Assembly: GCA_038231135.1 (NCBI GenBank)
Contig: JBBRLX010000012.1
Coordinates: 45,944-109,943 of the forward strand
Reading direction: 5' to 3'
Length of the DNA: 64,000 nt
DNA from: Candidatus Eiseniibacteriota bacterium
GTDB lineage: Bacteria > Eisenbacteria > RBG-16-71-46
The notes beneath the pieces are model-generated. The model made no database searches and was not told where the DNA came from. It saw only the letters and a program-made list of their open reading frames with translations. Positions within the stretch are counted from its first letter, which is position 1. Every line of letters starts with the position of its first letter. Shown here one piece after another: positions 28,232-45,071 of this stretch. Made by a program: the position numbers and the translations under genes.

Positions 28232-31162
28232 CTACCTCACGATCGTAATCTTCCGCGCCAGCTCCCGGGCGCCGTTCGACAGCCGCACGAAGTACGGCCC
28301 CGCGGCCACGCGGTGGCCGCCGTCATCGAGGCCGTTCCACTGGATCGCATGCAATCCGGCTTCGAGCGCGCCATCCGCGAGCGTTCGCACGGAACGGCCC
28401 GACAGGTCGTAGACGCGCAGCGCCACGCGACCCGGGGCGGGCAGCGTAAAGCGCAGTGTCGTGCGGCCGAACGCGGGGTTCGGCATCGGGGCCGAGAACT
28501 CCAGCCCGGCAGCCGCATTCCCGTCGCCGACAGCCAGCGTCGCCGGGAAGTGCAGCAGCCGGAAGTCGTCGATGCCGGCCTCGACCAGCGAGCCGCCGGC
28601 CGAGTCCTGCGCCACGAACCGCATCTTCATGTTCGCGGTGGGCGTGACGTAGTCGTCGATGAAGAACAGGATGCGCTGCCACGAGCTCGCCGACTCGAGC
28701 GTGTTCTCGACCACCACCCAGCTCGCGCCGCCGTTGTTCGAGATGTACGTGCGCCAGTAGTCGGCGTTGGGTTCGCCACCGAGGGCGTTCGTGTACCAGC
28801 GGTAGTACTCGAGCATGGGGTGCTGACCGGCGGTGGCGTCGAACGTGTTCGTGGTCAGCGTCGTCCTTCCGCCGTCGACGTCGTTGGCCCCCGCGTCATC
28901 GCCCACGGTGCCGATGCCGGTGACCCAGCAGAAGATTCCCGGCGCGGGGGTGTGATCGTCCTCTGGAGCGCACTGCACGCCACCCACGTTCGTTCCGTTG
29001 GGGTTCCCGCGCTCCCAGGTCCCGGTGACCGCATTGTCGCCGGGCGCTCCCACCGTCCAGTGTGGATCGGCGTCCATGTCCTGCAGGAACACGGTCGATG
29101 CCGGTCCGGCCAGGAACGTGTACACCGCCCGCGTCGGCGCCACGGCGGGATCGGTCGTGCCGGCGCCGTAGGTATCCTTCGCCGAGATCCAGTAGTGGAC
29201 GATGCCGAACTGGAGAAACGGGATCTGCGCGCGGAACTCGTTCGGATTGCCGGTCGGAGTCATCGTGAGGGTCGTGTAGCCGCCGTTGTTGATCGAGTAG
29301 TGCAGCGTCGGTGAATTCGGATCGAGCGTGCCCACGGGGCCCGAATACTGGAACGTTGCGACCACTGGATATGGGGACGTCCCGTTCTGGTCCGCGAGCG
29401 GGGTGTGCGTGATGTGGATGAAGAAGCCGGTGCCGATGCCGTGCGCGTTGAACGCCGCGACGATCTGCGAGAAGTGTGGCGTGCCGTTGCCGAGGTTCGC
29501 ATCGTTGTCGTCCACGACCAGCGTCTCTACAAAATAGTCGCTGAACGCGACGCCGTCGTCGGGGTCGTCGGGCTTGCCGTACTTGGCGAAGTGTTCGAGG
29601 TGCGTCGCGAGCGTTATGCCGATCGACTGGCGCAGGTCCCAGAACGCGCCGCCGATGATGAGGCCGGTGGCGTGCGGGTCGCCGCTCTCGTTGTCGGGCC
29701 AGCGGGCGGTGTTGACGAGGTGGCGCAGCGTGGTGCCGGGGCCGAAGAATCCCTTGCCGATGTTGGGGTCGTCCTGCAAGAACGCCGCATTCACGTCGGC
29801 CATGCCCTCGTGGAGGGCGGCGTTCAGCATGCCGTTCGGCGAGCCCGCGGCCACGTACATGTTGTCGTTGATGCCGTGCCCGTACTCGTGATAGATCACG
29901 TCGGCGATGGTGCCGGTGTTCACGCAGCCGGCGCCGGCACGAAAGAAGTTGACGCCGACGCCGTCCCAGAACGCGTTGCAGGTGGAGTTCACGTTGACCC
30001 GCGTGGGCACCGCGTAGTCCATGCCGGTAAATGTGGGGTCCACGCCCTTGATGAACGCGTGCACGCGGTTCACGTGGTAGTAGGCGTCCCGCTCGGCGTC
30101 GTTGGCCTTCGTTCCGTCCCATAGCAGGTTGACGTTGTTCTGGAAATTCGACGCCGAGGTGGAGATGACACCCGGCGGCGGCAGGTCGTCGTTGATGTCG
30201 CAGTAGGTGCCGACCAGGCTGTCGGTCACGATCACGACGCCGGTGGCGGCCGCGGAATAGTTGCCCACGGAATCGGTGACGGCGATATTGGGCCCCACGA
30301 ACACCTTGAGATTCGGCAGATTGACCGTCTCGAGCAGATCGGTGGGCGTGATCGGATGGATCGTCGCCGTGACTTTTCCCGAGATGTTGTGGCGCACGCG
30401 ATCCTGCCGCCACAGCACCTCGCCGGTGTTGGCGTCGACGAGCGTCCACCAGTTGCCGGGCGGATCCTGCACGAGGACGTGCTCCTCGTAGACCAGCCTG
30501 TATTCGGCGGCGCCTTCGCTGCCGTCATTCCAAGGCAGGATCCACGTGCCGCCGTCCTCGACCTTATCCCGGCCGTCGACGAAATCGAGGCCGGTGTGCG
30601 CCGCTTCGCGCGCGGCCGCCCGCACCAGCGCGGGGGTGGTGCGCACCGCGGTGGCCGGCGAATGCCGGTCGGCGCCGAACATCATGAGGCGGCCGTTCGT
30701 GCCGACGCGGAACTCCCAATCCGAGAACAGCACCGGCACACCGTTCAGTGTCTGGCGATACCGCGCGTACCACACGTGGCCGTGCTGCCCGACGTTCACC
30801 GCCGCGAGTTCCGGCGCGCCGAACAGGTCCGGATTCCCGCGCACGAACGCCCGCACCGCGCGATCCACAGAATTCGAGTCGTTGGCTGCGCCGGGCAGCG
30901 GGATCGATGGCCCGAATGCGCGATGCGGCGATGCCGTACGCCCGTTCCAGTTTGCGATCCAGTCACCGTGCTGCGAGCGAAAGCTCTGCCACGCCGGCGA
31001 CGCATCGAGCAACGCCTGGCGTGCTCCGCCGATCGCCACGGGATGGACGGCCGCCGGCATCACTTCGCCGCGCGGCACCCGATCGGACAGCGTCGCCGCT
31101 CCGGCCGGAACCGCGATCAACGCGAATGCACACAGCGAGGCCAGGCGCATGAATCGGTGCAC
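28232..31162 (-). CDS. Secreted M4/M36-like zinc metallopeptidase with propeptide, beta-sandwich region and C-terminal FlgD-Ig domain
   Basis: Signal peptide; FTP/PepSY-like propeptide (YRQTLNGVPV, LVDANTGEVL); CNAFWDG, IYHEYGH, ALHEGMAD; C-terminal PNP...VYDLSGRSVRTL...WNG...GPYFVRL. GGAGG RBS. Confidence 0.88.
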   Translation of the reverse strand: MHRFMRLASLCAFALIAVPAGAATLSDRVPRGEVMPAAVHPVAIGGARQALLDASPAWQSFRSQHGDWIANWNGRTASPHRAFGPSIPLPGAANDSNSVDRAVRAFVRGNPDLFGAPELAAVNVGQHGHVWYARYRQTLNGVPVLFSDWEFRVGTNGRLMMFGADRHSPATAVRTTPALVRAAAREAAHTGLDFVDGRDKVEDGGTWILPWNDGSEGAAEYRLVYEEHVLVQDPPGNWWTLVDANTGEVLWRQDRVRHNISGKVTATIHPITPTDLLETVNLPNLKVFVGPNIAVTDSVGNYSAAATGVVIVTDSLVGTYCDINDDLPPPGVISTSASNFQNNVNLLWDGTKANDAERDAYYHVNRVHAFIKGVDPTFTGMDYAVPTRVNVNSTCNAFWDGVGVNFFRAGAGCVNTGTIADVIYHEYGHGINDNMYVAAGSPNGMLNAALHEGMADVNAAFLQDDPNIGKGFFGPGTTLRHLVNTARWPDNESGDPHATGLIIGGAFWDLRQSIGITLATHLEHFAKYGKPDDPDDGVAFSDYFVETLVVDDNDANLGNGTPHFSQIVAAFNAHGIGTGFFIHITHTPLADQNGTSPYPVVATFQYSGPVGTLDPNSPTLHYSINNGGYTTLTMTPTGNPNEFRAQIPFLQFGIVHYWISAKDTYGAGTTDPAVAPTRAVYTFLAGPASTVFLQDMDADPHWTVGAPGDNAVTGTWERGNPNGTNVGGVQCAPEDDHTPAPGIFCWVTGIGTVGDDAGANDVDGGRTTLTTNTFDATAGQHPMLEYYRWYTNALGGEPNADYWRTYISNNGGASWVVVENTLESASSWQRILFFIDDYVTPTANMKMRFVAQDSAGGSLVEAGIDDFRLLHFPATLAVGDGNAAAGLEFSAPMPNPAFGRTTLRFTLPAPGRVALRVYDLSGRSVRTLADGALEAGLHAIQWNGLDDGGHRVAAGPYFVRLSNGARELARKITIVR

Positions 31163-31776: not shown

Positions 31777-32697
31777 ATGACCATGCCCGCGGATCACGTG
31801 ATGTTCGTGGTGCTGGCGATCGTGGGCCCGGTGTGGGCCGCGACCGTCGGCTACCGGCGGCTCACCGGCGCCGCGCCGGCCGACGCGCCGCGGGTGCGTC
31901 GGTCGGTGTACCGCGCCGCGATCCTGCTGCAATGGACCCTCACCGCCGCGGTGGCGGCGTTGTGGCTCGTGACGGGCAGGCCGTGGGCATCGCTGGGGCT
32001 CGTGCCGCGGCCCACGTGGGGACTGTTCGGGGTCGCGCTGGGTACGGCGTTCGTGATCGTGTTCGTCGCGCGCCAGCGCGGGCAGGTGCTCGACGACGAC
32101 GACGCGCTGGCCGAGGTGCGCGAGCGCATGCGGCACGTGGAGCCCATGCTGCCGCGCACGACGAGCGAGATGCGCACGTTCGCCCGGCTCGCCATCACTG
32201 CGGGCATCTGCGAAGAGGTGCTCTACCGCGGATTCATGATCTTCTACCTCGCCCAGTTCACCGGCGTGATCACCGCCGCCGTCATCGCCTCGGTGCTGTT
32301 CGGCGTCGGGCATGCCTACCAGGGCTGGCGTGGCGTGCTGCTCACCGGCATGGTCGGGGGGTTCCTGTCCGCGGTGTACCTGGTGTCGGGCTCGCTGTTC
32401 GTGCCCATGGTGCTGCACGCGCTGATGGACCTGCATTCCGGGCAACTGGCGCACGTGGCCCTGGTGCGCGAAGCCGAGCTGCAGGCGGAATGGGAACACG
32501 AGTGGCAGGAGCGACAGCGCGCGATGGAGCTGGAGCGGGCGCAAGCACAGGAGCTCGAGCATGCGGATGACGCAGGCTGGCAGGGGCGTCTGGATTCGGA
32601 TCCGCAGCACGCTCCACTCACGGAACCGCGCCCGGCCGATGACACTGACACTGACCGCGGGCTCGATCGCGCCGCCGAAGGAGGGCCGTCCACGTGA
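31777..32697 (+). CDS. CPBP (Abi/CAAX) family intramembrane metalloprotease with acidic C-terminal tail
   Basis: AGICEEVLYRG, FGVGHAYQG, HALMD motifs; several TM segments. Confidence 0.9.
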   Translation: MTMPADHVMFVVLAIVGPVWAATVGYRRLTGAAPADAPRVRRSVYRAAILLQWTLTAAVAALWLVTGRPWASLGLVPRPTWGLFGVALGTAFVIVFVARQRGQVLDDDDALAEVRERMRHVEPMLPRTTSEMRTFARLAITAGICEEVLYRGFMIFYLAQFTGVITAAVIASVLFGVGHAYQGWRGVLLTGMVGGFLSAVYLVSGSLFVPMVLHALMDLHSGQLAHVALVREAELQAEWEHEWQERQRAMELERAQAQELEHADDAGWQGRLDSDPQHAPLTEPRPADDTDTDRGLDRAAEGGPST

Positions 32698-33833
32698 GCC
32701 GCACCTACGACGTCGCCGTGCTCGGGTTGGGCGCGATGGGCAGCGCCGCGCTGTGCCACCTCGCGCGCGCGGGCCTGTCGGTGGTGGGGCTCGAGCAATT
32801 CGTGAGCCCCCACGCGCAGGGCTCGTCGCACGGCGGCAGTCGCATCATTCGCGAGGCCTACTTCGAGGATCCCCGTTATGTGCCGCTGGTGCATCGCGCC
32901 TACGAGGAATGGGACCGCCTCGAGCGCGACACCGGGCAGCAGCTGCGACGGACGACAGGCGGAGTGATGATCGGGCCGGAGGCGGGCGTGCTGGTCGCGG
33001 GGGCGCTGGCCAGCGCGCGCACCCACGGTCTCCAGTACGAGCTGCTCGGCGCGGCGGAGTTGCAGCGCCGGTTTCCGGCGTTCCACCCGGCGGACGACAT
33101 GGTGGGAGTGTGGGAGCCGCGCGCCGGCGTGCTGTTCCCCGAGCGCTGCATCACGACGCACCTCGAACTGGCCACGCGCGCGGGCGCCGCGGTGCGGTCG
33201 CTCGAGACCGTCCGGTCATGGCGCGCGCGCTCGGGCGCGGTCGAGATCTCGACCGCGCGCGGCACCGTGCGCGCCGGCCAGCTCGTGCTCGCGTGTGGCG
33301 CTTGGATGCCGGGGTTTCTCGATGGCGCCGAGCTGCCGCTCGCGGTCGAGCGCGTGGTGCAGGCGTGGTTCGAGCCGGTGTCGCCCGAAGCGCTCGTGCC
33401 CGAGCGCTGTCCGGTCACGATCTGGGAATACGCCCCCGGCCGGTTCTACTACGCATTCCCGCTGCTCGACGGCGCGGTGAAGGCGGCGCTGCACCATCAG
33501 GGCACGCCTGCCGACCCGGAGCGCGTGCGGAGCGAACCTGAGCCGGCGGAGCTCGAGCGCATCCGCGAGCCGCTGCGGCGCCACATGCCCGACGCCGACG
33601 GACCGCTGCGCGAGGCGCGCGTCTGCCTCTACACGAACACGCCCGACGAGCACTTCGTGATCGATCGCCATCCCGCGCACAATCAGGTGCTGATCGTGAG
33701 CGCCTGCTCGGGCCACGGCTTCAAATTCTCGAGCGCGATCGGCGCGATCGTGACGGAATTGGTGCGGGATGGGACGACGTCGGCGGATCTGGCGATGTTC
33801 GGGGCGGGGCGGTTTTTGAAGCCCGTTCCTTAA
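32694..33833 (+). CDS. solA: N-methyl-L-tryptophan / monomeric sarcosine oxidase family flavoprotein
   Basis: VLGLGAMGS, GSSHGGSRIIR, CLYTNTPDEHFVID, ACSGHGFKF. Confidence 0.9.
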   Translation: MSRTYDVAVLGLGAMGSAALCHLARAGLSVVGLEQFVSPHAQGSSHGGSRIIREAYFEDPRYVPLVHRAYEEWDRLERDTGQQLRRTTGGVMIGPEAGVLVAGALASARTHGLQYELLGAAELQRRFPAFHPADDMVGVWEPRAGVLFPERCITTHLELATRAGAAVRSLETVRSWRARSGAVEISTARGTVRAGQLVLACGAWMPGFLDGAELPLAVERVVQAWFEPVSPEALVPERCPVTIWEYAPGRFYYAFPLLDGAVKAALHHQGTPADPERVRSEPEPAELERIREPLRRHMPDADGPLREARVCLYTNTPDEHFVIDRHPAHNQVLIVSACSGHGFKFSSAIGAIVTELVRDGTTSADLAMFGAGRFLKPVP

Positions 33834-35218
33834 GGCCGCGATTCCCCGTTCCCTGCCGCGACCTCACTCCCCAGCCACCGCGCCACGATCTTGTCGCGCC
33901 GCTCCTCGAGGATCTTCACCAGGTATTCGACCGCGCGGGGATCGGAGTAGTCTCCGGCCTCGACGGCGGCGCGGATCAGCTCGTCGGTGAATCCGGCGAC
34001 GATGCGGGCGCCCCACTTCACGTCGGCGTCGGTGCGCGCGTCGAACGCCGGGTTGGGAATGAACGGCCGCCAGCTCTGCGGGCGAAACGTATCGGCTTCG
34101 AAGTAGCCGACGCTGGGCAGGTTTGGGTCGACGCCGTGTTCCCAGCGGTATGGCGGCAGCGCGAGCGTCCCGAGCGATCGCGTGACCGTGCCGTAGTCCA
34201 CGAGGTACTCGTGGCCGTTGCGCGGCGTCTGCGACACCACCGACGCCGACCCGAGGCAGCCGTTGAAGTCGATCAGATGGTGCCGCACGAACGAGCGGCC
34301 GCCGTCGGTGACGTACATGTCGATCGTGTTGCGGGCGCTGCAATCGGTGTGCTGTGTCCAGGAATTGATCGTCCACAATCCGCGGATCTCACGGCGCAGT
34401 TCGTGCGGGATCCGGTCCTCGACATCGTCCTTGCGGCGGCCTTCGTAATGCCATTCGCCGAGCGGTTTGCCCTTGAGGAACCGGCTGGCGACCACGCGAT
34501 ACGCACTGTCCGCGGCAACCGGCACATCGCGCAGCAGGTCGTCGAGGAACGCCTTCGTGATCGGATACTTCTTCCCGGCGATGTCGTAGGTGGCGCCAGC
34601 GCCGACCACCAAATCGTCGCGGCGGAACCGGGCGATGGTGTTGTCGGGCACGTTGTAACCGGCGGCCCAATACAACTTGGACACGACGACGTCGGCCGAG
34701 GTCGTGAGTTCCGGCGATGCGGGCGGGTCGAACTTGATCGCGAACCGCACGCCGTTCGCGTCCTTGATCTGGAATCCCTTCGAGACGCCTTCCGTCTTCG
34801 CTCGTACCACCGACCACTTCCCCGGCGCGGGGCCGGTGCCGGGGCCGGCGCCGGTGAGCATGTCGTGGACGGTCACCGTGCGGTAGCCGACGCGCGGCTG
34901 CCACCAGGTGCTCGGCAGGCGCACGCGGCCCTGCTCGTCCACGTTCGCGGCCTCGCGGCGTCCGACGCCCAGCTTGCGCACCAGCAGCGCCGGGTCGAGC
35001 GCGCGCGTCGCCGGCCGTACGAAGCTCTGATGAATCGCGTCGTAATAGTAGGAGATGCTGGTTGCGCGCGGCATGGGGATGGTGTCGGGCGGAGCGCCGT
35101 CGGCATGTGACGCCGGCGCGACGACCAGCGCCGACAACACGGCCGCGAACGCGCACGACGTGCGCACGGGCGCGCAGCCAGGCGCCCGCCCGGCCGAACG
35201 CGCGAAACCGCGCGTCAT
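33830..35218 (-). CDS. Exported protein with atypical protein-kinase-like motifs
   Basis: N-terminal hydrophobic signal ending ASHA; KTEGVSKGF...FAIKFD, ELTTSAD, HTDCSARN, LIDFNGCLG. ATG overlaps the upstream OMP stop. Confidence 0.6.
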   Translation of the reverse strand: MTRGFARSAGRAPGCAPVRTSCAFAAVLSALVVAPASHADGAPPDTIPMPRATSISYYYDAIHQSFVRPATRALDPALLVRKLGVGRREAANVDEQGRVRLPSTWWQPRVGYRTVTVHDMLTGAGPGTGPAPGKWSVVRAKTEGVSKGFQIKDANGVRFAIKFDPPASPELTTSADVVVSKLYWAAGYNVPDNTIARFRRDDLVVGAGATYDIAGKKYPITKAFLDDLLRDVPVAADSAYRVVASRFLKGKPLGEWHYEGRRKDDVEDRIPHELRREIRGLWTINSWTQHTDCSARNTIDMYVTDGGRSFVRHHLIDFNGCLGSASVVSQTPRNGHEYLVDYGTVTRSLGTLALPPYRWEHGVDPNLPSVGYFEADTFRPQSWRPFIPNPAFDARTDADVKWGARIVAGFTDELIRAAVEAGDYSDPRAVEYLVKILEERRDKIVARWLGSEVAAGNGESRP

Positions 35219-36606
35219 TCCACACCTCCGAGCGAGAACCGGATGCGGACGGACTCGGGGCCAGCGTCGACACCCGCCATGGCGATCACCTGGTGGAGGT
35301 CGCGCAATCGAATCGCGAGGCCACACGAGTGCCGCAAGTCCGTCACGCGCGCGGCCGCAAATCGCGGGAACACAGTGCCCGTCTCCGCGTGCAGATCACC
35401 TTCCAGATGGAGCCCGAGCGGAAAGATGTAACTGAGCTTCGCGGCGGCCTTGTCGAGGTCGCGGAAGCGTCCGGGTTCCCAGCCCGCGAGGCCGGCGCTG
35501 CCGCCGAGGCTCGCGAGATCGGCGATCAGGAACCGGCCGCCGCCCTGGTCTGGACGCTGATCCGTCGCATCGACCGCGAGCCGCAGCGAGCGCGGATCGT
35601 GTCCGAACGAGGCGCCCACCTCGGCTGCGGCGTTGAAGCGGGTGAACGACCTCGCATCGGGATGGCCGTCGGAGAACGCGAACGCAGCGCGCGCGCGATC
35701 GAACCGCTCGGCGCTCGCCGATGCGCGCCAGCCGTGCGACCAGTGGGGCTGGCCGCCGCGCGAGTCGCGAGTGAGCGAGCCGCCATAGATGAAATGCTCG
35801 ACCGGCCGCCCGAGGTTCGCGGCGTCGGCGGGGTACAGCACGTCGAACGACGGCCGGCGCGGGTCACGCCCGGTAGCCAGCACGGCCTCGCGCGAACCGA
35901 CCCACAGCAATGCATTGGCGCGCGAACGTTCCGGCCCGCGTATGACCACGGGACTCGACGCGGTGGCGCCGGACGGTGTCGGTTCGGGCAGTCTCCGCCA
36001 CGGTATCGAAACCGTGAGCCGCACGGATTGCAGCCGTTCCGCGAACGCCGCCGCGCCCGCCTTGGGCGCCGACATTCCGACGCCGTAGTAGAGGTCGCGA
36101 GCGCGCCATTCAGAACTCCAGTTCCCGCGCCACGGGCCGAACGTCACCGACATGCGCTCACGATTGTAGTGATTCGTACTGCCGCTCACGTCCGCAAGGA
36201 CATGCCCGCGCGTGAACGGGGGTGACCACAGCACCGCGCCGCCGAATCCGGTGCGGTCGCCCAGCGATGCTGGGGTGACCGCGAACTGGACGCGGCGTTG
36301 GAACGCGAAGGCTTCCTTCACCCGGATGTCCAGACGATCCTGCTCCACGTGCAGCAGGCCGAGATCGGCCGCGCGGCCCAGCGCCGACAGCGGCAGAGAA
36401 ACGATGCGCCCCGGAAAGCGCAGCACGGATTCCCATCGCTCGGCGGCCGGCACCGCGGCGGGAGGGTTCCAGGGCCGCTCGGTGCTGGCACGCAGGTCGG
36501 TCCCCACGTACGTCGAATCGACGGATCCCGACAACGCCGGGGTCGCGATGCACGCCACCATCGACAGCAGCAGCGTGAGTCCGAGGAGCGGCACATGGAC
36601 GCGCAT
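35215..36606 (-). CDS. Outer-membrane beta-barrel protein (Omp85/BamA-TamA-like barrel)
   Basis: Signal peptide; alternating beta-strand pattern; LGGSAGLAGWEPGRFRD (variant of the LRGF loop-6 motif); ends SVRIRFSLGGVE. Confidence 0.6.
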   Translation of the reverse strand: MRVHVPLLGLTLLLSMVACIATPALSGSVDSTYVGTDLRASTERPWNPPAAVPAAERWESVLRFPGRIVSLPLSALGRAADLGLLHVEQDRLDIRVKEAFAFQRRVQFAVTPASLGDRTGFGGAVLWSPPFTRGHVLADVSGSTNHYNRERMSVTFGPWRGNWSSEWRARDLYYGVGMSAPKAGAAAFAERLQSVRLTVSIPWRRLPEPTPSGATASSPVVIRGPERSRANALLWVGSREAVLATGRDPRRPSFDVLYPADAANLGRPVEHFIYGGSLTRDSRGGQPHWSHGWRASASAERFDRARAAFAFSDGHPDARSFTRFNAAAEVGASFGHDPRSLRLAVDATDQRPDQGGGRFLIADLASLGGSAGLAGWEPGRFRDLDKAAAKLSYIFPLGLHLEGDLHAETGTVFPRFAAARVTDLRHSCGLAIRLRDLHQVIAMAGVDAGPESVRIRFSLGGVE

Positions 36607-36685
36607 GAGGAATGCGGAATATGAACCATTCCCCCGCCAAGTCAACGTCCTTGGACGGCCGCGCCCGCCGGGCTACCCTTTGGGC

Positions 36686-39403
36686 ATGATCGCCCGTCTG
36701 GCACGCCTGCTAAAGCTCGAACCCGAGGAAACCCGGCTTGCGCTGGCGTTCGGGGCGGTGCTGTTCGTGCTCACGGCGTCCTACACGCTCGTCAAGACCG
36801 CGCGCGACGCGCTGTTCCTGGCCCACATGCCCGCGAACCGGCTGCCCTACGTCTATCTGGCCGTGGGCGTGCTCACGACGATCGCGGCCGTGGCGTATGC
36901 CCGCGTCACTCGCGGTCGCCGTGCGCTGCAGGCGCTCGAATGGGCGACCTGGTTCTCGGCCGCGGTCCTCGGCTGGTTCGCCTGGGGCATTCGCGGCGGG
37001 GCACACGTCACGGTGGTGGCGTTCTACCTGTGGGTCAACATCTATGGACTTATCTTGTTTTCGCAGTTCTGGCTGTACGCGAATGCAGCGTCCGATCCGC
37101 GGGAAGCGAAGCGCACGTTCGGCATGATCGGCACCGGGGGCATCATCGGCGGACTGGTGGGCGGCATCGTCGCTCCCGTGCTCGTCGGTCCGGGTGGCCT
37201 CCACTCGCTCGTGCTGCTGGCCGCGGTGTTGCTGCTGCTGGCGGCGGCGGCGTTGCGGTTCGCGTCGGAACGCCGCCGCTCGGCGATGCCTCAGGAGCCG
37301 CTGCCGGTCGACGACGCGGCCGGACCGTTCCGGAGTCGCTACGTGCGGTGGCTCGCGCTCGGGGCATTGTGTTCGGTGCTGGTGGGCACGCTGCTCGACT
37401 ACCAGTTCAAGGTCGAGCTCCAGCACCGCAACCCCTCGCCGAAGACGATCGCGTCGATGTTCGGATTGTTCTACACGTTCACGAATCTCGCCGCGATCGC
37501 CGTGCAGTTGTTCGTGTCGCGCTGGTCATTGCGCCGCCTCGGCGCCGGCTGGTCGGCGGGTCTGCTGCCCGCGGGGCTCACGGTGGGTGCGGCTGCCATG
37601 GCATTCGTCCCCGGGTTCGGCGCCGTGGTCGGAGCGCGGACCTGGGATCAGGTGCTGCGCATCTCGATCAACAAGCCCGCGAACGAGCTGCTGTTCTTCC
37701 CGCTGCCGGCCGGCGTGCGGCGCCGCGCCAAGGCGTGGATCGAATCGGGTCTCGAGCGGCTCGGCGACGCGTTCGCCGGCATCGTGATCCTCGCCACCGG
37801 CATGATGTTCGGATCGTCGGTGCGGGTGGTCGCGACGCTGATGCTGCTGCTGATCCTGGTGTGGGCGGTGGCGTGGATTCGCATCCGCCGCGGCTATGTG
37901 CGCGAGCTGGGACGCAACCTGCGGCGCCTGAATCTCGACCCGCGCGGCAGCCGGATCTCGCTGCGCGAATCCCACGTGCTCGAGGAGATGGCGCGGCTGG
38001 TCGACAGCCCTCACGAACGAATCGTGCTGCATGGCATCGAGCTGCTCGAGGAGTCCGCTCCGGAGCAACTGCGCGAGCGGGTGCCCGAGCTGCTGGATCA
38101 TCCGGTGGCCGCCGTGCGCGCGCGTGCGCTGCGCGCGATCGGGGCGAACGCCACGCCGGAGGTCGCGCTGCGCGTCGCGGCGATGCTCCACGATCCGGAT
38201 CCCGAGGTGCGCATGGCGGCGCTGCGGGTGCAATGCATGGTGGGTGGCGCGCCGTCGCTCGACACGGCGGAGGCGTTCCTCGGGTCCGACGACCCGCACC
38301 TGCGGCGCAGTGCGCTCGAGTGCATGGTCGAGGCGCGCGGCGCGGTGGAGGAGGACCGCGTCCGGCGCGTCATCGAACGCCGGCTCGACGGGGCGGACAC
38401 GGCCGACCGTGTGGCGATCGCCGAGGCGCTGGGCCGCCGCGAGCCGCCGACCCGCCTGCATGAGCTGCTGCCCCCGCTGGCGGACGATGCCGAGCTCACG
38501 GTGCGCAATGCCGCGATGGTGAGTGCCGGGCGCGCGGGATTGCGCATACTGGTGCCGCGGATGATCGCGTCACTGACCCAGCGCCACAGCCGCACGCCGG
38601 CGCGCACCGCGCTGGCGTCGTTTGGCGACCGCATCACGGGGACGCTCGGCGACTATCTCGCCGATCCGAGCTCGGATCTGGCGTTGCGCCGCGAACTGCC
38701 CCGCGTGCTCGGCGACATCGCGACTCCCGATGCCGTGATCGCGCTGATGCGCTACCGCGAGCGCGACGACGTGCGACTGTCGTACCGGGTGCTCAAGGCG
38801 ATGAACAAGATCCGCGCCCGCACCCGACAGGCGCGATTCCCGCGCGATCTGGTGAGCGCGGATCTCGAGCACGACGTGCGGAACTTCCTGTTCGCGTTCG
38901 TCCACTACCGCAGCTGTCCGATCGGCAACGTGCGGAGCGCCGAGCGCCTGCTGTGCATCGCTCTCAACGAGCGCATGGACCAGGCGCTCAATCGCATCTT
39001 CCGCCGCCTCGCGCTGATCTACCCGGCGGACGAGACCTACGCCGGCTACCGTGGCATCGTGTCCGACAACCCGCGACTGCGCGGCAACGCGCTCGAATAC
39101 ATCGAGAACGTGCTATCGGCGGAACACGCGGCACTGGTGCTGCCGCTGGTCGATGACTCCGGTGACGCGGGCCGGCTGCGGTTCGCGGATTCGCGATTCG
39201 GCATTCGGTTCGCCGGCTATCTGGAATCGCTGGGGGCGATCCTCGACCACGACGACGCCTGGCTCGCCATCTGCGCCCTGTACGTCGCCGGCTCGCAACG
39301 CGAGGGTTCGCTGCTGGACCACGTGGAACGGCAGACCGCATCGAACCACCCGCATGTCCGCGCAACCGCGCTGTGGGCGCAGGCGGCACTGGTGACGGCA
39401 TGA
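36686..39403 (+). CDS. NTT/TLC (ATP:ADP antiporter-like) MFS transporter fused to HEAT repeats
   Basis: YTLVKTARDALFL, FYLWVNI, SQFW.YAN...REAKR.FG.IG.GG, LLDYQFK, RISINKPANELLFFP; HEAT units (LLDHPVAAVRARAL, LHDPDPEVRMAAL). Confidence 0.85.
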   Translation: MIARLARLLKLEPEETRLALAFGAVLFVLTASYTLVKTARDALFLAHMPANRLPYVYLAVGVLTTIAAVAYARVTRGRRALQALEWATWFSAAVLGWFAWGIRGGAHVTVVAFYLWVNIYGLILFSQFWLYANAASDPREAKRTFGMIGTGGIIGGLVGGIVAPVLVGPGGLHSLVLLAAVLLLLAAAALRFASERRRSAMPQEPLPVDDAAGPFRSRYVRWLALGALCSVLVGTLLDYQFKVELQHRNPSPKTIASMFGLFYTFTNLAAIAVQLFVSRWSLRRLGAGWSAGLLPAGLTVGAAAMAFVPGFGAVVGARTWDQVLRISINKPANELLFFPLPAGVRRRAKAWIESGLERLGDAFAGIVILATGMMFGSSVRVVATLMLLLILVWAVAWIRIRRGYVRELGRNLRRLNLDPRGSRISLRESHVLEEMARLVDSPHERIVLHGIELLEESAPEQLRERVPELLDHPVAAVRARALRAIGANATPEVALRVAAMLHDPDPEVRMAALRVQCMVGGAPSLDTAEAFLGSDDPHLRRSALECMVEARGAVEEDRVRRVIERRLDGADTADRVAIAEALGRREPPTRLHELLPPLADDAELTVRNAAMVSAGRAGLRILVPRMIASLTQRHSRTPARTALASFGDRITGTLGDYLADPSSDLALRRELPRVLGDIATPDAVIALMRYRERDDVRLSYRVLKAMNKIRARTRQARFPRDLVSADLEHDVRNFLFAFVHYRSCPIGNVRSAERLLCIALNERMDQALNRIFRRLALIYPADETYAGYRGIVSDNPRLRGNALEYIENVLSAEHAALVLPLVDDSGDAGRLRFADSRFGIRFAGYLESLGAILDHDDAWLAICALYVAGSQREGSLLDHVERQTASNHPHVRATALWAQAALVTA

Positions 39404-40077
39404 TCGAAGACACTCTGACCCTGGTCGAGAAGACCGCGTTCCTCAAGAGCGTGCCGGTGCTGGCGTCGATCCCCACCGAGCCGCTCGCGGAGCTGGCGAG
39501 CCGCGCTCGTGAGATCTCGCTGGAACCGGGCGAGGTTGCGTTCCACGCCGGCGACGCGAATACCGGCTCGTACCTGATCATGGACGGGCTGCTGCAGTTG
39601 AAGCGCGGTGATGCCGTGGTCCGCGTGTTACGAAGCGGCATGGCGTTCGGCGAGCTGTGGCGTTCCGATCGCGAACCGCACCAATATCAGTTGATCGCGA
39701 TCGAGACCTCGCACGCGCTCAACTTCACCAGCGACGACGTGTTCGAGGCCATGAACGAGTACCCCGAGTTCGGCGTGGCGATGGTGCAGGCATTCGCCCT
39801 GCGCATTCACGAAGTGACGAGCCGCGTCCTGGACCTCGAGAGCGTCATCGCGCGATTGACCGAGGAGCTGGTGCGCCACGGCATCGAGCTGCCCGAGCTG
39901 CCGGCGTCGTTGATCGAGCCCATCACGCCGGGCGAGCAGTTGCTCGGAGGCACGTCGGCGCCGTGGCCCGGGTTGCCGACGGCTGCGGCAACGAAGGCTT
40001 CGGCCGGCGGGGCACCCGCCGCCGGACCCGTCGCGCCCGCGCCGTCCGGCACGCCCGGTACCGAACCCACTTCGTGA
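39400..40077 (+). CDS. Cyclic nucleotide-binding domain protein
   Basis: LTLVEKTAFLKSVPVLASIP, FHAGD, YLIMDG, GMAFGEL; ATGA overlap with the NTT-HEAT gene. Confidence 0.85.
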   Translation: MIEDTLTLVEKTAFLKSVPVLASIPTEPLAELASRAREISLEPGEVAFHAGDANTGSYLIMDGLLQLKRGDAVVRVLRSGMAFGELWRSDREPHQYQLIAIETSHALNFTSDDVFEAMNEYPEFGVAMVQAFALRIHEVTSRVLDLESVIARLTEELVRHGIELPELPASLIEPITPGEQLLGGTSAPWPGLPTAAATKASAGGAPAAGPVAPAPSGTPGTEPTS

Positions 40078-41480
40078 CCAAGCCGGACCCGGCGGCCGGA
40101 CCGGAGGTTCCCGTGCCGGGCGTGGTCGTCCGCCCGATCGGGCCGGAGTTGCTGCGGCTCGCGCTGCCGGTGCTCGCCTCGCAGCTACTGCGCGTCGGGT
40201 ATCAATGGGTGGACGCGCTGTGGGTCAAGGGCCTCGGCGTCGATGCCACCGCCGCCGTGACCACGTCCGTGTTCGTGATGTGGTCGGTCTATTCGCTGCA
40301 CGACGTGATCGGCCTCGGCGTGTCGCCGTTCGTGAGCCAGCTGCTGGGCGCCGGGGATCGGGACCGCGCGGGCGTCGCCGCGTTCAAAGGCGTGCGCGCG
40401 TCGGCGCTGCTCGGGCTCATCGGGACGTTCGCCGGCCTGTTCCTGGCGCGCCCGATCTATCACCTGATGCACGCCGATCCCGGCGTGGTCGATCAGGGCG
40501 GCCGGTACCTGTCGGTCGTGCTGTCGGCGGCGCCGCTGCCGATGATCGGCCTCACCTGCGAGGTGATCATGCGCGCCGCGGGCGACACGCGCACGCCGTT
40601 GATGATCGACCTGTTCGCGATCGGCCTCAACGCCGCGCTCGACCCGTTCCTGATCTACGGCTGGGGCCCGTTCCCGCGCATGGGCGTCGCCGGCGCCGCG
40701 TGGGCCACCGTGATCGCCCAGGCGGTGATGGTGGCGTGCTACCTGACCGTCGCGGCGCGCGGGCATCGCGCGTTCCCGTTCCGGCGCCGGGCGGCGGGGC
40801 CGCCGGTGCGCGTCGCGAGCATGGCGAAGGTCGGGTTCCCCGGGGCGATGATCGGGTTCCTGTTCTCCGTGGTGTACATCGCGTTTGCGCGGGCAGCCGG
40901 AGCGTTCGGTCCGGCCGCACTGGCCGTGGTCGGAGTGGCCAATCGCATCGAGGCGCTGCATTTCGTGAACTCGGTGGCGCTCGGCGGCGCGGGCGCGACG
41001 CTGGTCGGCCAGAACCTCGGCGCCCGCCGCCCCGATCGCGCGGTGCAGACGATCATGACCGCGAATCTGTGGAACCTGTGGATCTCGCTCGCGCTCATGA
41101 CCGCATTTCTGACGTGGCCCGAGATGTTCCTGCACCTGTTCTCGCGCGATCCCGGCGTGATCGCGCTCGGCGTCCCGTATCTGAGGGTGCTGGCGCTGTG
41201 CCTGCCGTTCGTGGGACTCGAGATCGTCACCGCGGAGTGCATCATCGGCTCCGGCCACACCGTCGCGATGTCGGTGATCTTCACCAGCGTCTCGATCCTG
41301 CGAATTCCGCTGGCGTTCCTCGTGCCGGGGTGGACCGGCACCGGGGTCGTGGGGATCGCGTGGCTGATCGTGGTGAGCGCCATTTTGCGCTCGAGCCTGA
41401 TCGTCGGCTGGGCTGCGCGCGGCACTTGGAAAGGCGGGCTGGCGAAGGAGCTGGGGAGTGGGGTGGATGTGACCGGCTGA
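40074..41480 (+). CDS. MATE family efflux transporter
   Basis: LLRLALP, VSQLLGAG, RAAGDTRTPL, NAALDPFLIYG, GVAGAAWAT, VGQNLGA; GTGA overlap. Confidence 0.92.
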   Translation: MTKPDPAAGPEVPVPGVVVRPIGPELLRLALPVLASQLLRVGYQWVDALWVKGLGVDATAAVTTSVFVMWSVYSLHDVIGLGVSPFVSQLLGAGDRDRAGVAAFKGVRASALLGLIGTFAGLFLARPIYHLMHADPGVVDQGGRYLSVVLSAAPLPMIGLTCEVIMRAAGDTRTPLMIDLFAIGLNAALDPFLIYGWGPFPRMGVAGAAWATVIAQAVMVACYLTVAARGHRAFPFRRRAAGPPVRVASMAKVGFPGAMIGFLFSVVYIAFARAAGAFGPAALAVVGVANRIEALHFVNSVALGGAGATLVGQNLGARRPDRAVQTIMTANLWNLWISLALMTAFLTWPEMFLHLFSRDPGVIALGVPYLRVLALCLPFVGLEIVTAECIIGSGHTVAMSVIFTSVSILRIPLAFLVPGWTGTGVVGIAWLIVVSAILRSSLIVGWAARGTWKGGLAKELGSGVDVTG

Positions 41481-41515: not shown

Positions 41516-43804
41516 CTACTCCGCCGCCATCACGCGCCGCTCGAGGCTCCGGAACCGTTCGTCGCCGCGAAGCGGGTCGAGGCGCGGGTGCACGCGGACC
41601 CACACCAGCGCGCGATCGCGCTCGCGGAACGCGCGTTCCAGCCACTCGATTGCCTGGTCGTTGTCTCCGAGACCCAGCAGGATCGCCGCGATCGCGTAAG
41701 CCGACACGAACCGGCGCGACGACTCGGCCTGCAGGTGCTCGAGGACGCGGCGCGCCTCGGCCGTGCGTCCGGCGCGGGCCAGCGTGTAGCCGATGCCGAC
41801 CGACGCCAGCGGGTTCGCGCCGCTGATCAGCCGCGCGCGCTCGAACGCCTCCAGCGCCTCGTCGTACTGGCCCGCCTGCGACAGCACCCGGCCCACATCG
41901 TTGATCGCCTGATAGAACGCGGGATCGATCTCGATCGTGTGGCGCAGCACTGCCAGCGCCTCGTCGTAGCGTCGCGCGAAGAAGTACGAGTCGCCGAGCG
42001 TAGTACCCATGATCGGGGCCTGAGGGTCCATCTCGTAGGCGCGACGCGCCTCGTCGATGCCGCGGTCGAACTCGCCGAGCGCGGACAGCAGCTCTGCGTA
42101 CCATTGGTGCGCGGTGGGATAGCCGGGCTGGAGTGCCAGCGCCTTGTCGTACGACTTCCGCGCCGCCTTCCAGTCCCAGTCGTAGAACATCTGCAGGGAT
42201 CCGAGCGATGTGTGGGCCTCACCGAGCTCGGGGTCGAGCTCCAGTGCACGCGCAAGGGCCGCCTTCGATTTCGCCGCGGCCTCGTGCGGCAGCATCGCGT
42301 TCATGTCGCCGAGCAGGTTGTAGGAATCCGCGATGCCCACGTACGGCTGCGGATAGTCGGGGTCGATCGCGATCGCCTGCTCGAACTGCGCGATGCCGCG
42401 GCGCATCTCGGTCTCGGTGCGGCGATTCCAATGGAACCGGCCCCGCAGATAGGCCTCGTACGCGCGCGGGTCGATCACCCGCGGCCCCCGCAGCCGAGAT
42501 TCCTCGCGGGGCGTGAGCTGCACACTCACTTCCTTTGCCACGCTGCACGCTGCCTCCGCCTGCAGCTCGAGCACGCCAGCCGTGGTGCCTTCGTACTGCT
42601 GTGCCCACAGCAGCCGGTCCGCGACCGCGTCGATGAGCTGGACGCTGATGCGCACGTTGTCCGCCGAGCGCTGGACGGAGCCTTCGATCACGCCCTGCAC
42701 TCCCAGCTCGCGCGCGATGTCCCGCACCGGCAGCGCCGTGTCCTTGTAGCGCATCGCCGTGGTACGCGAGATCACGCGCAGCGCTCCGATGCCGGCGAGG
42801 CTCGCGATCAGCGCCTCGGTCATGCCGTCGGCGAAGAACTCCTGCGCAGGATCGCCCGACAGGTTGACGAGCGGGAGCACGGCGAGCGATGTGATGGCGG
42901 CGCGTGCGCCCGGCACTGCCCCGGCCTCGTGGCGCGGCGGCACGGCGCTGCCGCCGCTGGTCGCGCGGGGCGCCCCGGCCATCTTGTCTTCGTTCCGCAG
43001 CTCCTCGGCGAGCTCCCTCGCGCTCGCGTGACGCTGCGCCGGATCCTTCGCGAGCGCACACAACACGGTCGAGGCGAACGCCTCGGACAATTCCTGGTGG
43101 GACTTTCGCGGCGACACCGGCGGCCGGTTGGCGATCGCATAGAGCAGCGCGGCCACGGTGTCGCCGGAATAGGGCCGGCCTCCGGTCGCGAGCTCGTAGA
43201 GGATCAGGCCAAGCGCATGGAGGTCCGCGGCCGGCCCTATGTCGCCGCCCGCGATCTGTTCCGGCGCCATGTACGCCAGCGTGCCCACCAAGGCGAGCGG
43301 CGCGGTCGCCGAGCGGGTCGCGTCGAAGTCGGCCGTGGTGACGCGGGCGAGCCCGAAGTCGAGCACCTTGGCGCGACCGTCGGGCGTCACGACCACGTTT
43401 CCCGGTTTCAAGTCGCGATGCACGACGCCGTGCGCGTGGGCGGCAGCGAGCGCGTCGGCGATCTGGGCGCCCAGCTCGCGAACGCGCGCTTCGGACAGCG
43501 GTCCGGCGGCGGCGACCGTCGCCAGCGTGTCCCCCGGCACGTACTCCATGACCATGAAGTCGGCGCCGTTCTCGTGATCGAACTCGTACACCGTCGCGAT
43601 GCCGGGATGATTGAGCCGCGACAGCGCGAGCGCCTCGGTCCGGAACCGGCCGCGGGTGGCCGCGTTCACGAGTGCGTCGGCATTGAGCATCTTGATCGCC
43701 ACCTCGCGCTCGAGCCGCTCGTCCCGGGCCAGGTACACCACCCCCATGCCTCCCGCGCCGAGGCGCCGCAGGACGCGATAGTGCGAGATCACCGTGTCGA
43801 TCAT
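41516..43804 (-). CDS. Ser/Thr protein kinase with TolB-like domain and TPR repeats
   Basis: LGAGGMGVVY, VAIK, HRDLKPGN, DFGLA, GTLAYMAPEQ; SLAVLPLVNLSGD..FFADGMTE; C-terminal TPRs. Confidence 0.95.
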   Translation of the reverse strand: MIDTVISHYRVLRRLGAGGMGVVYLARDERLEREVAIKMLNADALVNAATRGRFRTEALALSRLNHPGIATVYEFDHENGADFMVMEYVPGDTLATVAAAGPLSEARVRELGAQIADALAAAHAHGVVHRDLKPGNVVVTPDGRAKVLDFGLARVTTADFDATRSATAPLALVGTLAYMAPEQIAGGDIGPAADLHALGLILYELATGGRPYSGDTVAALLYAIANRPPVSPRKSHQELSEAFASTVLCALAKDPAQRHASARELAEELRNEDKMAGAPRATSGGSAVPPRHEAGAVPGARAAITSLAVLPLVNLSGDPAQEFFADGMTEALIASLAGIGALRVISRTTAMRYKDTALPVRDIARELGVQGVIEGSVQRSADNVRISVQLIDAVADRLLWAQQYEGTTAGVLELQAEAACSVAKEVSVQLTPREESRLRGPRVIDPRAYEAYLRGRFHWNRRTETEMRRGIAQFEQAIAIDPDYPQPYVGIADSYNLLGDMNAMLPHEAAAKSKAALARALELDPELGEAHTSLGSLQMFYDWDWKAARKSYDKALALQPGYPTAHQWYAELLSALGEFDRGIDEARRAYEMDPQAPIMGTTLGDSYFFARRYDEALAVLRHTIEIDPAFYQAINDVGRVLSQAGQYDEALEAFERARLISGANPLASVGIGYTLARAGRTAEARRVLEHLQAESSRRFVSAYAIAAILLGLGDNDQAIEWLERAFRERDRALVWVRVHPRLDPLRGDERFRSLERRVMAAE

Positions 43805-43871
43805 GGAGTGCAGGTTATCACCGCGGCGGCCCCGCTTCACGACGCGCGGCTTTGAGCGTAATCTCCCGCTC

Positions 43872-45071
43872 ATGGCCAAGTCCTACATCATCATCGGCGG
43901 CGGCAATGCCGCGGCTTCCGCAATCGAAGGCATTCGCGAGCACGATACCGACGGCTCGATCCTGTTGGTGTCGCGCGAGAACCATCTGCCGTACGAGCGT
44001 CCGCCGCTGTCCAAGGAGTTGTGGTTCGGCAAGAAGACGCTCGACGCGATCTCGCTGCACGACGAGGCGTGGTATCGCGAGCGCAGCGTCGAGGTCGCGC
44101 TGCGGCGCGAGGTCGTCGAAATCGATCCGGCACAGCATGCGGTGTGGGACGATCGCGGTGATCGCCACGACTACGACGCGTTGCTGATGGCCACGGGAAG
44201 CCGGCCGCGGCTGATGGGCGGAGCGGGAGTCGGAGTGGAAGGCATCCACTACTACCGGTCGCTCGAAGACTATCTGGTGCTCAGGGACCGGCTGCGCACG
44301 GTGCAGCACGTGCTGGTGGTGGGCGGCGGGTTCATCACGATCGAGATTGCCGCGGCCCTGCGCCACAACGGAGTCGAGGTCACGTTCGTCTACCCGCACG
44401 AGTATCCGCTGCAGCGCGTGCTGCCGCGCGAGCTCGGGCTGCACGTCGCCGAGTACTACCGGGAGAAGGGCATCGAGACACTGTCGGGCGACGCCATCAC
44501 CGGATTCGAGAATCGTCAGGGGCTGATCGAGGCGCAGACGCGCGGCGGGAATACGATCACCACCCAGCTCGTGCTCGTCGGCATCGGCGTGGAGCCGTCG
44601 GTCGAGCTGGCCGAGGCGTGCGGCCTCGAGGTCGGCAACGGCATCGAGGTCGACGAATTCGCGCGCACCTCGGACGCGAGCATCTGGGCCGCCGGCGACG
44701 TGGCCGGGTTCCCGTACCTGGCACTCGGCGAACGCACGCGCATCGAGCACTGGGACCACGCGGAGCATCATGGGCGTGCGGCCGGGGCCAACATGGCCGG
44801 CGCGAACAAGCCGTACGACCACCTGCCGTTCTTCTGGTCGGACTTCTTCGACATGGGCTGGGAGGCGGTCGGCGACACCGATTCGAGCCTCGAGATGGAC
44901 GTGATCTGGAACGAGCCGTTCAAGGAAGGCATGCTGTTCTACCTGCGCGAGGACGTCATCCGCGGGGTACTGATGTGGAACATGTGGGAGAAGGTCGAGT
45001 GGGCGCGCGACCGGATTCGCGAGGCCCGGCCCAGCACTCATGCCGAACGCGAAGCCTGGGTGCACGGCTGA
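43872..45071 (+). CDS. NAD(P)/FAD-dependent oxidoreductase (ferredoxin reductase / AIF-like)
   Basis: IIGGGNAA, PYERPPLSK, ATGSRPR, VVGGGFI, WAAGDVA, RIEHWDHA, PFFWSD. Confidence 0.92.
   Translation: MAKSYIIIGGGNAAASAIEGIREHDTDGSILLVSRENHLPYERPPLSKELWFGKKTLDAISLHDEAWYRERSVEVALRREVVEIDPAQHAVWDDRGDRHDYDALLMATGSRPRLMGGAGVGVEGIHYYRSLEDYLVLRDRLRTVQHVLVVGGGFITIEIAAALRHNGVEVTFVYPHEYPLQRVLPRELGLHVAEYYREKGIETLSGDAITGFENRQGLIEAQTRGGNTITTQLVLVGIGVEPSVELAEACGLEVGNGIEVDEFARTSDASIWAAGDVAGFPYLALGERTRIEHWDHAEHHGRAAGANMAGANKPYDHLPFFWSDFFDMGWEAVGDTDSSLEMDVIWNEPFKEGMLFYLREDVIRGVLMWNMWEKVEWARDRIREARPSTHAEREAWVHG

Follow-up and report, generated by a model that had tools for sequence, protein, structure and literature searches.

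A putative periplasmic ATP-supply module that couples an NTT-HEAT carrier to an exported atypical kinase and a POTRA-less Omp85-type barrel

On balance, the locus described here probably encodes a system in which an NTT-family carrier exports ATP and feeds a periplasmic kinase docked on an outer-membrane barrel; ATP as the cargo and export as the direction are what we infer. Two divergent gene pairs were found in the window, the whole stretch of 64,000 nucleotides that was analysed. On the minus strand, the gene of a POTRA-less Omp85-type barrel (36606-35215, 463 aa, signal peptide) is followed by that of KIN-A, an exported protein of atypical kinase fold (35218-33830, 462 aa, N-terminal signal-like segment), with an ATGA overlap at 35215-35218. 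On the plus strand, the gene of NTT-HEAT, an NTT/TLC-family MFS carrier with HEAT repeats (36686-39403, 905 aa), overlaps by ATGA (39400-39403) with a stand-alone gene for a cNMP-binding fold (39400-40077, 225 aa, no signal peptide). The barrel and NTT-HEAT genes are separated by a 79 bp spacer (36607-36685). When the coordinates were rechecked, the four genes, the spacer and both overlaps were all present as the sequence-only reading had stated. A scan of the spacer called one sigma-70-like site on the minus strand (36645-36618), versus 0.0 expected in shuffles. By eye, a weaker -35/-10 pair that the scan did not call was seen on the plus strand (36651-36679), ending six bases upstream of the NTT-HEAT start.

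The structure of KIN-A was predicted with a pLDDT of 92. In comparisons with this predicted structure the best fold match was CtkA (Z 13.7, rmsd 4.1, 226 aligned), followed by Fam20 (Z 13.1, rmsd 4.2, 256 aligned), PI4KII (Z 12.8, rmsd 4.6, 244 aligned) and CotH (Z 12.2, rmsd 4.3, 231 aligned), and the next unrelated tier was reached at Z 7.4. The catalytic residues K141, K162, D292, N297 and D317 are intact; the beta3 Lys, catalytic Asp and Mg-binding Asn/Asp (K162, D292, N297, D317) were assigned from motif order and are conserved in a 132-sequence alignment (98%, 97%, 95% and 99%, respectively). K162 was replaced in 35 of 144 scorable copies, in which K141 and D-N-D were retained. Judged by its model, KIN-A is an atypical kinase of the Fam20C/CtkA/PI4KII/CotH/HipA fold, for which phosphotransfer is predicted. 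It shares the fold and the catalytic residue set with Fam20C/Fam20B, CotH, CtkA, PI4KII and HipA and is predicted to be exported, as Fam20 and CotH are. It differs from them by its low identity (7-12%), the absence of a Pfam match and a basic motif of its own (D268, H272, R276 and R279, invariant in the family), as well as by its predicted setting in the bacterial periplasm with an Omp85 barrel as partner. A hydropathy heuristic detected signal-like N-termini in 112 of the 119 close homologs and in 120 of the 126 distant ones, compared to 5 of 126 internal control windows. Neither KIN-A nor the barrel matched any Pfam or NCBIfam family; for KIN-A no Pfam family was obtained at E 0.1 and the Fam20C family proper (PF06702) was not matched, while 2 of 12 distant members weakly matched HipA_2. 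The nearest named Atlas cluster (0.84) is a lead only, and searches of solved-structure sequences with the single sequence and the profile returned only chance matches to designed repeat proteins.

The predicted barrel structure (pLDDT 82) matched the TamA/BamA barrels (E 3e-11), and the protein scored 0.98 to Omp85 clusters of the Atlas; the Pfam Omp85 profile did not match it. In the model, POTRA is absent and the part ahead of the barrel is just a disordered segment with two helices, which classifies the protein as a POTRA-less ('noNterm') Omp85 type rather than a BamA/TamA insertase. The barrel adjoins the kinase in 77 of 80 distant GTDB loci, in 18 of the 19 regions from relatives and in 18 of the 20 loci from a third phylum. 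Complex prediction for the barrel and KIN-A gave a score of 0.68 compared to 0.00 for the best control, with a contact agreement between runs of at least 71% and a partner pLDDT of at least 87; of 157 solved complexes, 116 score at or above the mark applied, as do 2 of 215 mismatched pairs. The predicted KIN-A interface consists of the N-terminal region and two short turns of the barrel, which we take to be periplasmic in Omp85 topology. KIN-A is thus predicted to dock at the periplasmic face of the barrel, and the proposal of a kinase docked on the barrel, made earlier from sequence, gains support at the level of complex prediction. Long forms of the barrel gave 17 matches, all of BamA/TamB type, and no long fused form of KIN-A was found among 7999 candidates, which is weak evidence. 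Three putative barrel-KIN-A fusions (L049, L050, L119) were discarded: their junctions read as wrong-frame sequence, the mark of frameshift artefacts.

Pfam assigned TLC, MFS_1 and HEAT to NTT-HEAT and cNMP_binding to its neighbor. The carrier part comprises about residues 1-415 and is followed by cytoplasmic HEAT repeats. NTT-HEAT passes the Pfam TLC cut-off (38.7 versus 21), and its family profile matches the solved NTT1 carriers 9j3n (E 6.5e-43) and 9j3j (E 1.4e-35), the profile family of the canonical ATP/ADP translocases (plastid and chlamydial NTT1), with which it shares the TM1 basic pair, W129 and D238/K242. In contrast to these it stays below the TIGR00769 cut-off (35.3 versus 387.2 bits), its host is free-living and the direction proposed is export. 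Moreover K155, E245 and K527 of plant NTT1, shown in PMC3306366 to matter for ATP handling, align with Y57, N118 and D361 (with an offset of 84 in the numbering, deduced from spacings of 90 and 282); as all three are replaced, the canonical ATP/ADP+Pi site is not retained. By architecture, with HEAT C-terminal of the NTT part and the cNMP-fold gene directly after, the pair is assigned to the NTT-HEAT(+cNBD) clade described by Major, Embley and Williams (2017; PMC5381601). No function was given there; ATP uptake or intercellular exchange was suggested, and kinase, barrel and phosphatase neighbors are unmentioned.

The cNMP-fold protein ends in a low-complexity tail. In CNB domains that bind cAMP or cGMP the phosphate-binding cassette follows the consensus Gly-Glu ... 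Arg. The cassette of the window's protein has Gly-Glu and a His instead of Arg and so departs from this consensus, and among 51 aligned cNMP domains from NTT-HEAT loci Gly-Glu was kept in 10 and Arg in 23. With the cassette degenerate both here and family-wide, the suggested regulation by a cyclic nucleotide is doubtful.

A second, co-oriented copy of the locus with two additional genes is present in the same genome, and the four-gene layout was found again in relatives and other phyla, which puts the linkage far above chance. Recurrence of NTT-HEAT beside kinase and OMP genes had been named as one of the tests of the sequence-only reading, and it was passed strongly, in several phyla. An exported phosphatase and a single-domain NTT, both missing from that reading, usually complete the module. 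MATE and CAAX protease genes are further recurrent neighbors among close relatives. Among 121 genomes of the own phylum, 59 carry KIN-A and NTT, 7 KIN-A only, 8 NTT only and 47 neither, so that NTT accompanies KIN-A in 59 of 66 genomes; it lies within 6 kb of 59 of the 84 KIN-A matches. The third phylum (71 genomes) gave 17 with both, none with KIN-A only, 2 with NTT only and 52 with neither. Because the genomes are related, no weight is placed on Fisher tests, which disregard kinship. For Acidobacteriota, NTT was present in 24 of 29 KIN-A genomes at a base rate of 64/151, and 18 of these 64 NTT-bearing genomes have none of the enzymes considered here. Outside the own phylum linkage is weak, with a carrier within 10 kb of 9 of 45 KIN-A and 20 of 103 KIN-B genes (KIN-A-NTT linkage in 3 of 20 third-phylum loci). 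The plasmids searched yielded neither KIN-A nor NTT-HEAT. In genomes without NTT, 9 of 11 scorable KIN-A copies have lost catalytic residues; six of the nine belong to one family, corresponding to about four independent losses. The two intact exceptions are the near-complete Acidobacteriota genomes G222 and G279, in which NTT was absent by family profile and by TIGR00769.

Two further exported kinases, likewise missing from the sequence-only reading, follow the same carrier. NTT was present in 38 of 38 KIN-B genomes (32 of 32 after removal of six seed genomes), in 15 of the 31 KIN-B loci from metagenomes that span at least 7 kb, and in 10 of 10 KIN-C genomes; exported phosphatases often adjoin both kinases. 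Profile comparison of KIN-A with KIN-B gave a probability of 0.6% with the alignment limited to the catalytic stretch, and KIN-C scored at most 12 bits against either, so we regard the three as distinct families that presumably share one fold. Neither KIN-B nor KIN-C was found in the window's own genome, nor KIN-C in the viral contigs searched. KIN-C is fused N-terminally to an Omp85 barrel, in three Bacteroidota plasmid proteins together with a phosphatase; a search limited to these plasmids found no NTT. In the Bacteroidota 'Metallo-Omp85' proteins checked, the kinase-like domain sits between a PF00149 phosphoesterase and the barrel. Heinz and Lithgow (2014; PMC4104836) relate the noNterm and Metallo barrels to each other. 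The POTRA-less barrel is shared with both types and with Leptospira paralogs (PMC11358297), and the word 'kinase' does not occur in these two texts. A literature search, with subscription journals and preprint supplements outside its coverage, found no description of the module.

It is unlikely that the carrier, though functionally tied to KIN-A, moves a cargo other than ATP (another nucleotide, NAD or the phosphorylated product), with an external donor such as polyphosphate for the kinase. The three replaced NTT1 residues would fit this, as would an NAD carrier and one protein moving no nucleotide among characterised NTTs (PMC5381601), a single-domain NTT subgroup adjoining TAT-exported NAD-binding enzymes, and, among 80 loci, the presence of PPK2 in nine and of PiT together with DUF47 in six. 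However, the PPK2 found lacks a signal peptide, KIN-A retains the full Mg-ATP motif set, with losses mainly where NTT is absent, and the fact that three families of kinases have this carrier in common with an ATP-grasp enzyme is better explained by a shared cofactor than by a shared product. Recurrent phosphatases, PiT, DUF47 and PPK2 could likewise indicate the reverse direction, in which phosphorylated compounds would enter through the barrel, enzymes of the periplasm would produce or release nucleotides, and NTT would take up ATP, as in parasites and plastids, to scavenge energy or phosphate. All characterised ATP/ADP NTTs import ATP (PMC5381601), and an exported PPDK-like enzyme, accompanied by NTT in 7 of 9 genomes, adjoins NTT-HEAT in G319, G320 and G141. 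The genomes concerned are, at 2 to 8 Mb, unlike those of reduced parasites. An energised cell would also have to import ATP uphill, and to our knowledge no protein-kinase-fold enzyme generates ATP; we therefore regard this direction as quite improbable.

Whether N-terminal enzymes of Omp85 proteins are translocated was left undecided by Heinz and Lithgow (PMC4104836), and the barrel might be a secretion pore of PlpD or two-partner type for an effector kinase that is exposed outside or enters other cells and uses their ATP, with a separate though related job for NTT. The closest fold match of KIN-A, the secreted Helicobacter kinase CtkA, and the two genomes with intact kinase in which NTT was not found point this way. 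There is little chance of it, since the barrel has no POTRA domain for substrate engagement, the predicted interface is on the side presumed periplasmic, 40 of 126 distant KIN-A homologs carry a lipobox-like motif, no immunity-type gene recurs among the neighbors, and the dependence on NTT would be left unexplained. A true pair of barrel and kinase, linked to NTT-HEAT and the cNMP gene merely by inherited gene order, would suit the opposite strands in the window, the recurrence of MATE and CAAX protease genes and the minority of linked loci outside the own phylum. Yet the genes stay together in divergent, co-oriented and reshuffled arrangements across three phyla, co-occurrence persists in unlinked genomes (17/17, 38/38), and catalytic decay follows NTT loss, which makes this very improbable.

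In the favored reading of ATP export to a docked kinase, inner-membrane NTT-HEAT would send ATP into the periplasm, return ADP and supply KIN-A. ATP export is downhill in an energised free-living cell, and it is on such general bioenergetics that the proposed direction rests. The carrier may be gated by its HEAT arm together with the protein of cNMP fold, perhaps with a ligand other than cAMP, and the exported phosphatases usual in the module could reverse the phosphorylation. KIN-A would most likely phosphorylate a target that is offered by the barrel on the inner side of the outer membrane; this may be an envelope protein or lipoprotein or, with the same probability, a lipid or lipid-linked glycan, and less probably an incoming small solute. 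Fam20C is supplied by an ER/Golgi ATP carrier, an arrangement that the proposed NTT-fed KIN-A resembles. The textbook periplasm is ATP-free, and envelope machines are currently explained around this view. If the favored reading is true, the periplasm would resemble the ER/Golgi lumen in being supplied with ATP, and the Gram-negative envelope would have an extra source of energy and a further, reversible level of modification. It would also give a function to the NTT-HEAT clade, which is widespread, and to the noNterm/Metallo Omp85 proteins, and roles to three orphan groups (free-living NTT-HEAT, POTRA-less/Metallo Omp85 and bacterial Fam20-like kinases), and could hint at the origin of parasite ATP carriers. 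The chances seem evenly balanced that many diderms export ATP through NTT carriers for use in the periplasm by an exported ATP-grasp enzyme and no fewer than three families of exported kinases, with matching exported phosphatases, and that two of the kinases have an Omp85 barrel of their own, as docking partner or within the same protein. The fused form is carried by cultured Bacteroidota.

The exported kinase, outer-membrane barrel and nucleotide carrier encoded in the window form an envelope module that is real and conserved, with a strong genomic case and a putative chemistry. The four genes proposed by the sequence-only reading were confirmed in place: on the minus strand an exported kinase of a family termed KIN-A (gene 1, 33830-35218) and the barrel (gene 2, 35215-36606), and on the plus strand a nucleotide carrier of the NTT family fused to HEAT repeats (NTT-HEAT; gene 3, 36686-39403) and a cNMP-fold protein (gene 4, 39400-40077). 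The 79-bp spacer shared by the two pairs (36607-36685) and the two ATGA overlaps (35215-35218 and 39400-39403) were likewise as described. Within the spacer, a single sigma-70-like site was called, on the minus strand (0.0 expected in shuffles). A Pfam scan of the four genes assigned TLC, MFS_1 and HEAT to gene 3 and cNMP_binding to gene 4, and named no family for genes 1 and 2. Judging by the barrel's nearest Atlas cluster and by a named homolog at 58%, the host probably belongs to the Eisenbacteria. The flanking genes are an FAD oxidase gene of the DAO family (32694-33833, plus strand), its stop overlapping that of the kinase gene, and a gene for a MATE transporter (40074-41480, plus strand) that overlaps the stop of the cNMP gene; both recur beside the module only in a few close relatives. 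Two minus-strand genes were named by eye: the one at 28232-31162 encodes an exported metallopeptidase-like protein that carries a sorting-type domain at its C-terminus, and the one at 41516-43879 a Ser/Thr kinase of the cytoplasm that includes TolB-like and TPR regions.

A second, fuller copy lies in the same genome (G000:C6:106698-118747, equal to L030:4699-16748), where barrel, kinase, exported metallophosphoesterase, single-domain NTT, NTT-HEAT and the cNMP-fold gene share one strand. Another metallophosphoesterase gene and a TonB-C-like gene precede it on that strand. Linkage, which the sequence-only reading had proposed to check by co-occurrence and synteny, recurs: of 19 regions from relatives, 8 show the divergent layout, and in most of these the kinase is followed downstream by phosphatase and single NTT; the ordered run barrel-kinase-phosphatase-NTT-HEAT-cNMP is also present in a third phylum (L174). 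Among 80 distant KIN-A loci, many of which end at contig edges, NTT was found in 14, metallophosphoesterase in 11, PPK2 in 9, PiT with DUF47 in 6 and PAP2 in 3.

Co-occurrence was counted in genomes picked irrespective of their genes, related genomes among them not being independent. In the host's own phylum (n=121), 59 genomes hold KIN-A and NTT, 7 KIN-A only, 8 NTT only and 47 neither; NTT lies within 6 kb of at least 59 of 84 KIN-A matches, a lower bound, since 26 NTT rows fell outside the listing and 7 second fragments of split genes had been removed. The corresponding counts in the third phylum (n=71; sample centre labelled Calditrichaceae) are 17, 0, 2 and 52. Strong KIN-A hits occur in 29 of 151 Acidobacteriota genomes (9 more, whose weak hits were to other kinases, were excluded), 24 of them with NTT, against a base rate of 64/151; only 9 of 45 KIN-A genes there lie within 10 kb of NTT.

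NTT is missing from 12 KIN-A genomes, in 10 of which a repeat search at E 0.001 still found none. Catalytic residues are lost in 9 of the 11 scorable KIN-A from these genomes (six from one family, plus G166, G182 and G260); the two intact ones, in genomes G222 and G279, are genuine counter-examples. Of 144 scorable KIN-A genes, 11 have a broken D-N-D triad: these nine and two paralogs from NTT genomes that also hold an NTT-linked KIN-A copy (intact residues checked in G120 only). One family (L273-L281), in which genes resembling polyprenyl and undecaprenyl diphosphate synthases lie divergently upstream, retains barrel and pseudokinase, which suggests a non-catalytic role for the pair.

With 2427 representatives at E <= 0.001, KIN-A is a large family, as yet unnamed. 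In a 132-sequence alignment K141, K162, D292, N297 and D317 are conserved in 93-99% of rows, and D268-H272-R276-R279 forms an invariant motif peculiar to the family. The predicted model (pLDDT 92) matched CtkA, Fam20, PI4KII, CotH and HipA with Z 13.7 to 9.6, the next tier falling to 7.4; the top Foldseek match was Fam20C. By a hydropathy heuristic, a signal-like start was present in 112/119 close and 120/126 distant homologs, compared with 5/126 internal windows. A lipobox-like motif occurs in 40 of the 126 distant homologs, and a PAP2 phosphatase domain in 6 of the 119 closest, among the matches listed. A Vicinamibacterales-rich subgroup (L050-L129) has Glu, Ser or Thr for the beta3 lysine and keeps K141 and D-N-D; possibly the other lysine is used instead.

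The predicted fold of gene 2 is a TamA/BamA-type barrel without POTRA domains. It adjoins KIN-A in 77/80 GTDB loci, mostly Acidobacteriota, in 18/19 regions of relatives and in 18/20 loci of the third phylum. Docking of the kinase on the barrel, as put forward from the sequence, is supported by complex prediction (score 0.68, best of three controls 0.00); the score mark was attained by 116/157 solved complexes and 2/215 mismatched pairs, counts that are approximate because our own alignments served as input. At least 71% of contacts agreed between runs, with partner pLDDT of at least 87, and a sequence search of solved structures returned no similar complex. On the barrel, the predicted contacts fall in its N-terminal region and in two short turns, 335-339 and 393-405, which are periplasmic in Omp85 topology. 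Kinase contacts include 331-339, directly after D317, and the kinase may therefore turn its substrate side towards the barrel.

The NTT-HEAT family profile matches solved NTT1 carriers. K155, E245 and K527, required for binding or exchange in plant NTT1 according to PMC3306366, align with Y57, N118 and D361 of the window carrier, so that ATP as cargo is inferred from the partner enzymes instead of the binding site. Regulation of the carrier by cyclic nucleotides, also proposed earlier, appears doubtful since the cassette of the cNMP-fold partner is degenerate. We somewhat favor a reading in which ATP exported by NTT would feed the barrel-docked kinase, which would phosphorylate an envelope substrate; the exported phosphatase would undo this, and ADP and phosphate would return through NTT and PiT, respectively. 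A different cargo or phosphate donor, to be weighed with the changed carrier residues on one side and the partner enzymes on the other, is unlikely. Transport in the reverse direction, for scavenging, we regard as less likely again. That the kinase is a secreted effector is slightly less probable still, and inherited gene order is very improbable.

The module apparently is undescribed so far: literature searches at the level of listings found no description. In the portions available, PMC5381601 describes NTT-HEAT with cNBD without function or barrel, kinase or phosphatase neighbours, PMC4104836 and PMC11358297 describe noNterm and Metallo Omp85 with 'kinase' nowhere mentioned, and PMC7948968 and PMC13595192 add nothing on the module.

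Other exported enzymes accompany NTT. A further family of exported kinases, KIN-B (~250 aa, matching PI3/4-kinase and HipA_2 weakly), was found in 6 of 40 NTT loci selected for no KIN-A nearby; it is accompanied there by a second type of exported phosphatase, the two being fused in 3. All 38 of the 151 Acidobacteriota genomes with KIN-B hold NTT (32/32 without the six seed genomes, 8 linked), as do 24 of 80 metagenome KIN-B loci and 15 of 31 of at least 7 kb. One locus (L202) combines phosphatase-KIN-B, barrel, KIN-A and NTT-HEAT in a single run, and in another (G183:C23:41371-48877, L141) five tandem KIN-B genes adjoin NTT-HEAT. KIN-C, a third family discovered beside NTT and PAP2, occurs in 10/151 Acidobacteriota genomes, all ten with NTT, and is fused N-terminally to an Omp85 barrel; plasmid proteins of Fulvitalea, Hymenobacter and Persicobacter are phosphatase-kinase-barrel chains of ~1200 aa with KIN-C. 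Neighbours of the Fulvitalea fusion (L313:4742-12508) are genes for an HD-Pycsar-effector and for an adenylate/guanylate cyclase. One NTT genome without KIN-A (G043) has two KIN-C, and neither KIN-B nor KIN-C was found in four further NTT-only genomes tested. Both NTT-only genomes of the third phylum encode a signal-peptide PPDK-like protein beside NTT-HEAT, and 7 of 9 Acidobacteriota genomes with this protein hold NTT. Such ATP-grasp proteins (~970 aa; L293, L294, L149, L325-L328) have exported beta-lactamase-fold proteins on either side and stand beside NTT-HEAT in three genomes. KIN-A, KIN-B, KIN-C and the PPDK-like protein are all absent from 18 of 64 Acidobacteriota NTT genomes, 13 of which have single-domain NTTs only, judged by frame length.

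In genomes without KIN-A, a single-domain NTT subgroup lies beside an NAD-dependent epimerase-like protein (L150-L152, L303, L304, L309, L310), with a TAT signal in 3 of 4 scanned, and may supply NAD(P) to a periplasmic enzyme. A further conserved block joins single-domain NTT with undecaprenyl diphosphate synthase-like, myo-inositol-1-phosphate synthase and MATE/ANKH-like genes (L134-L137, L140, L143).
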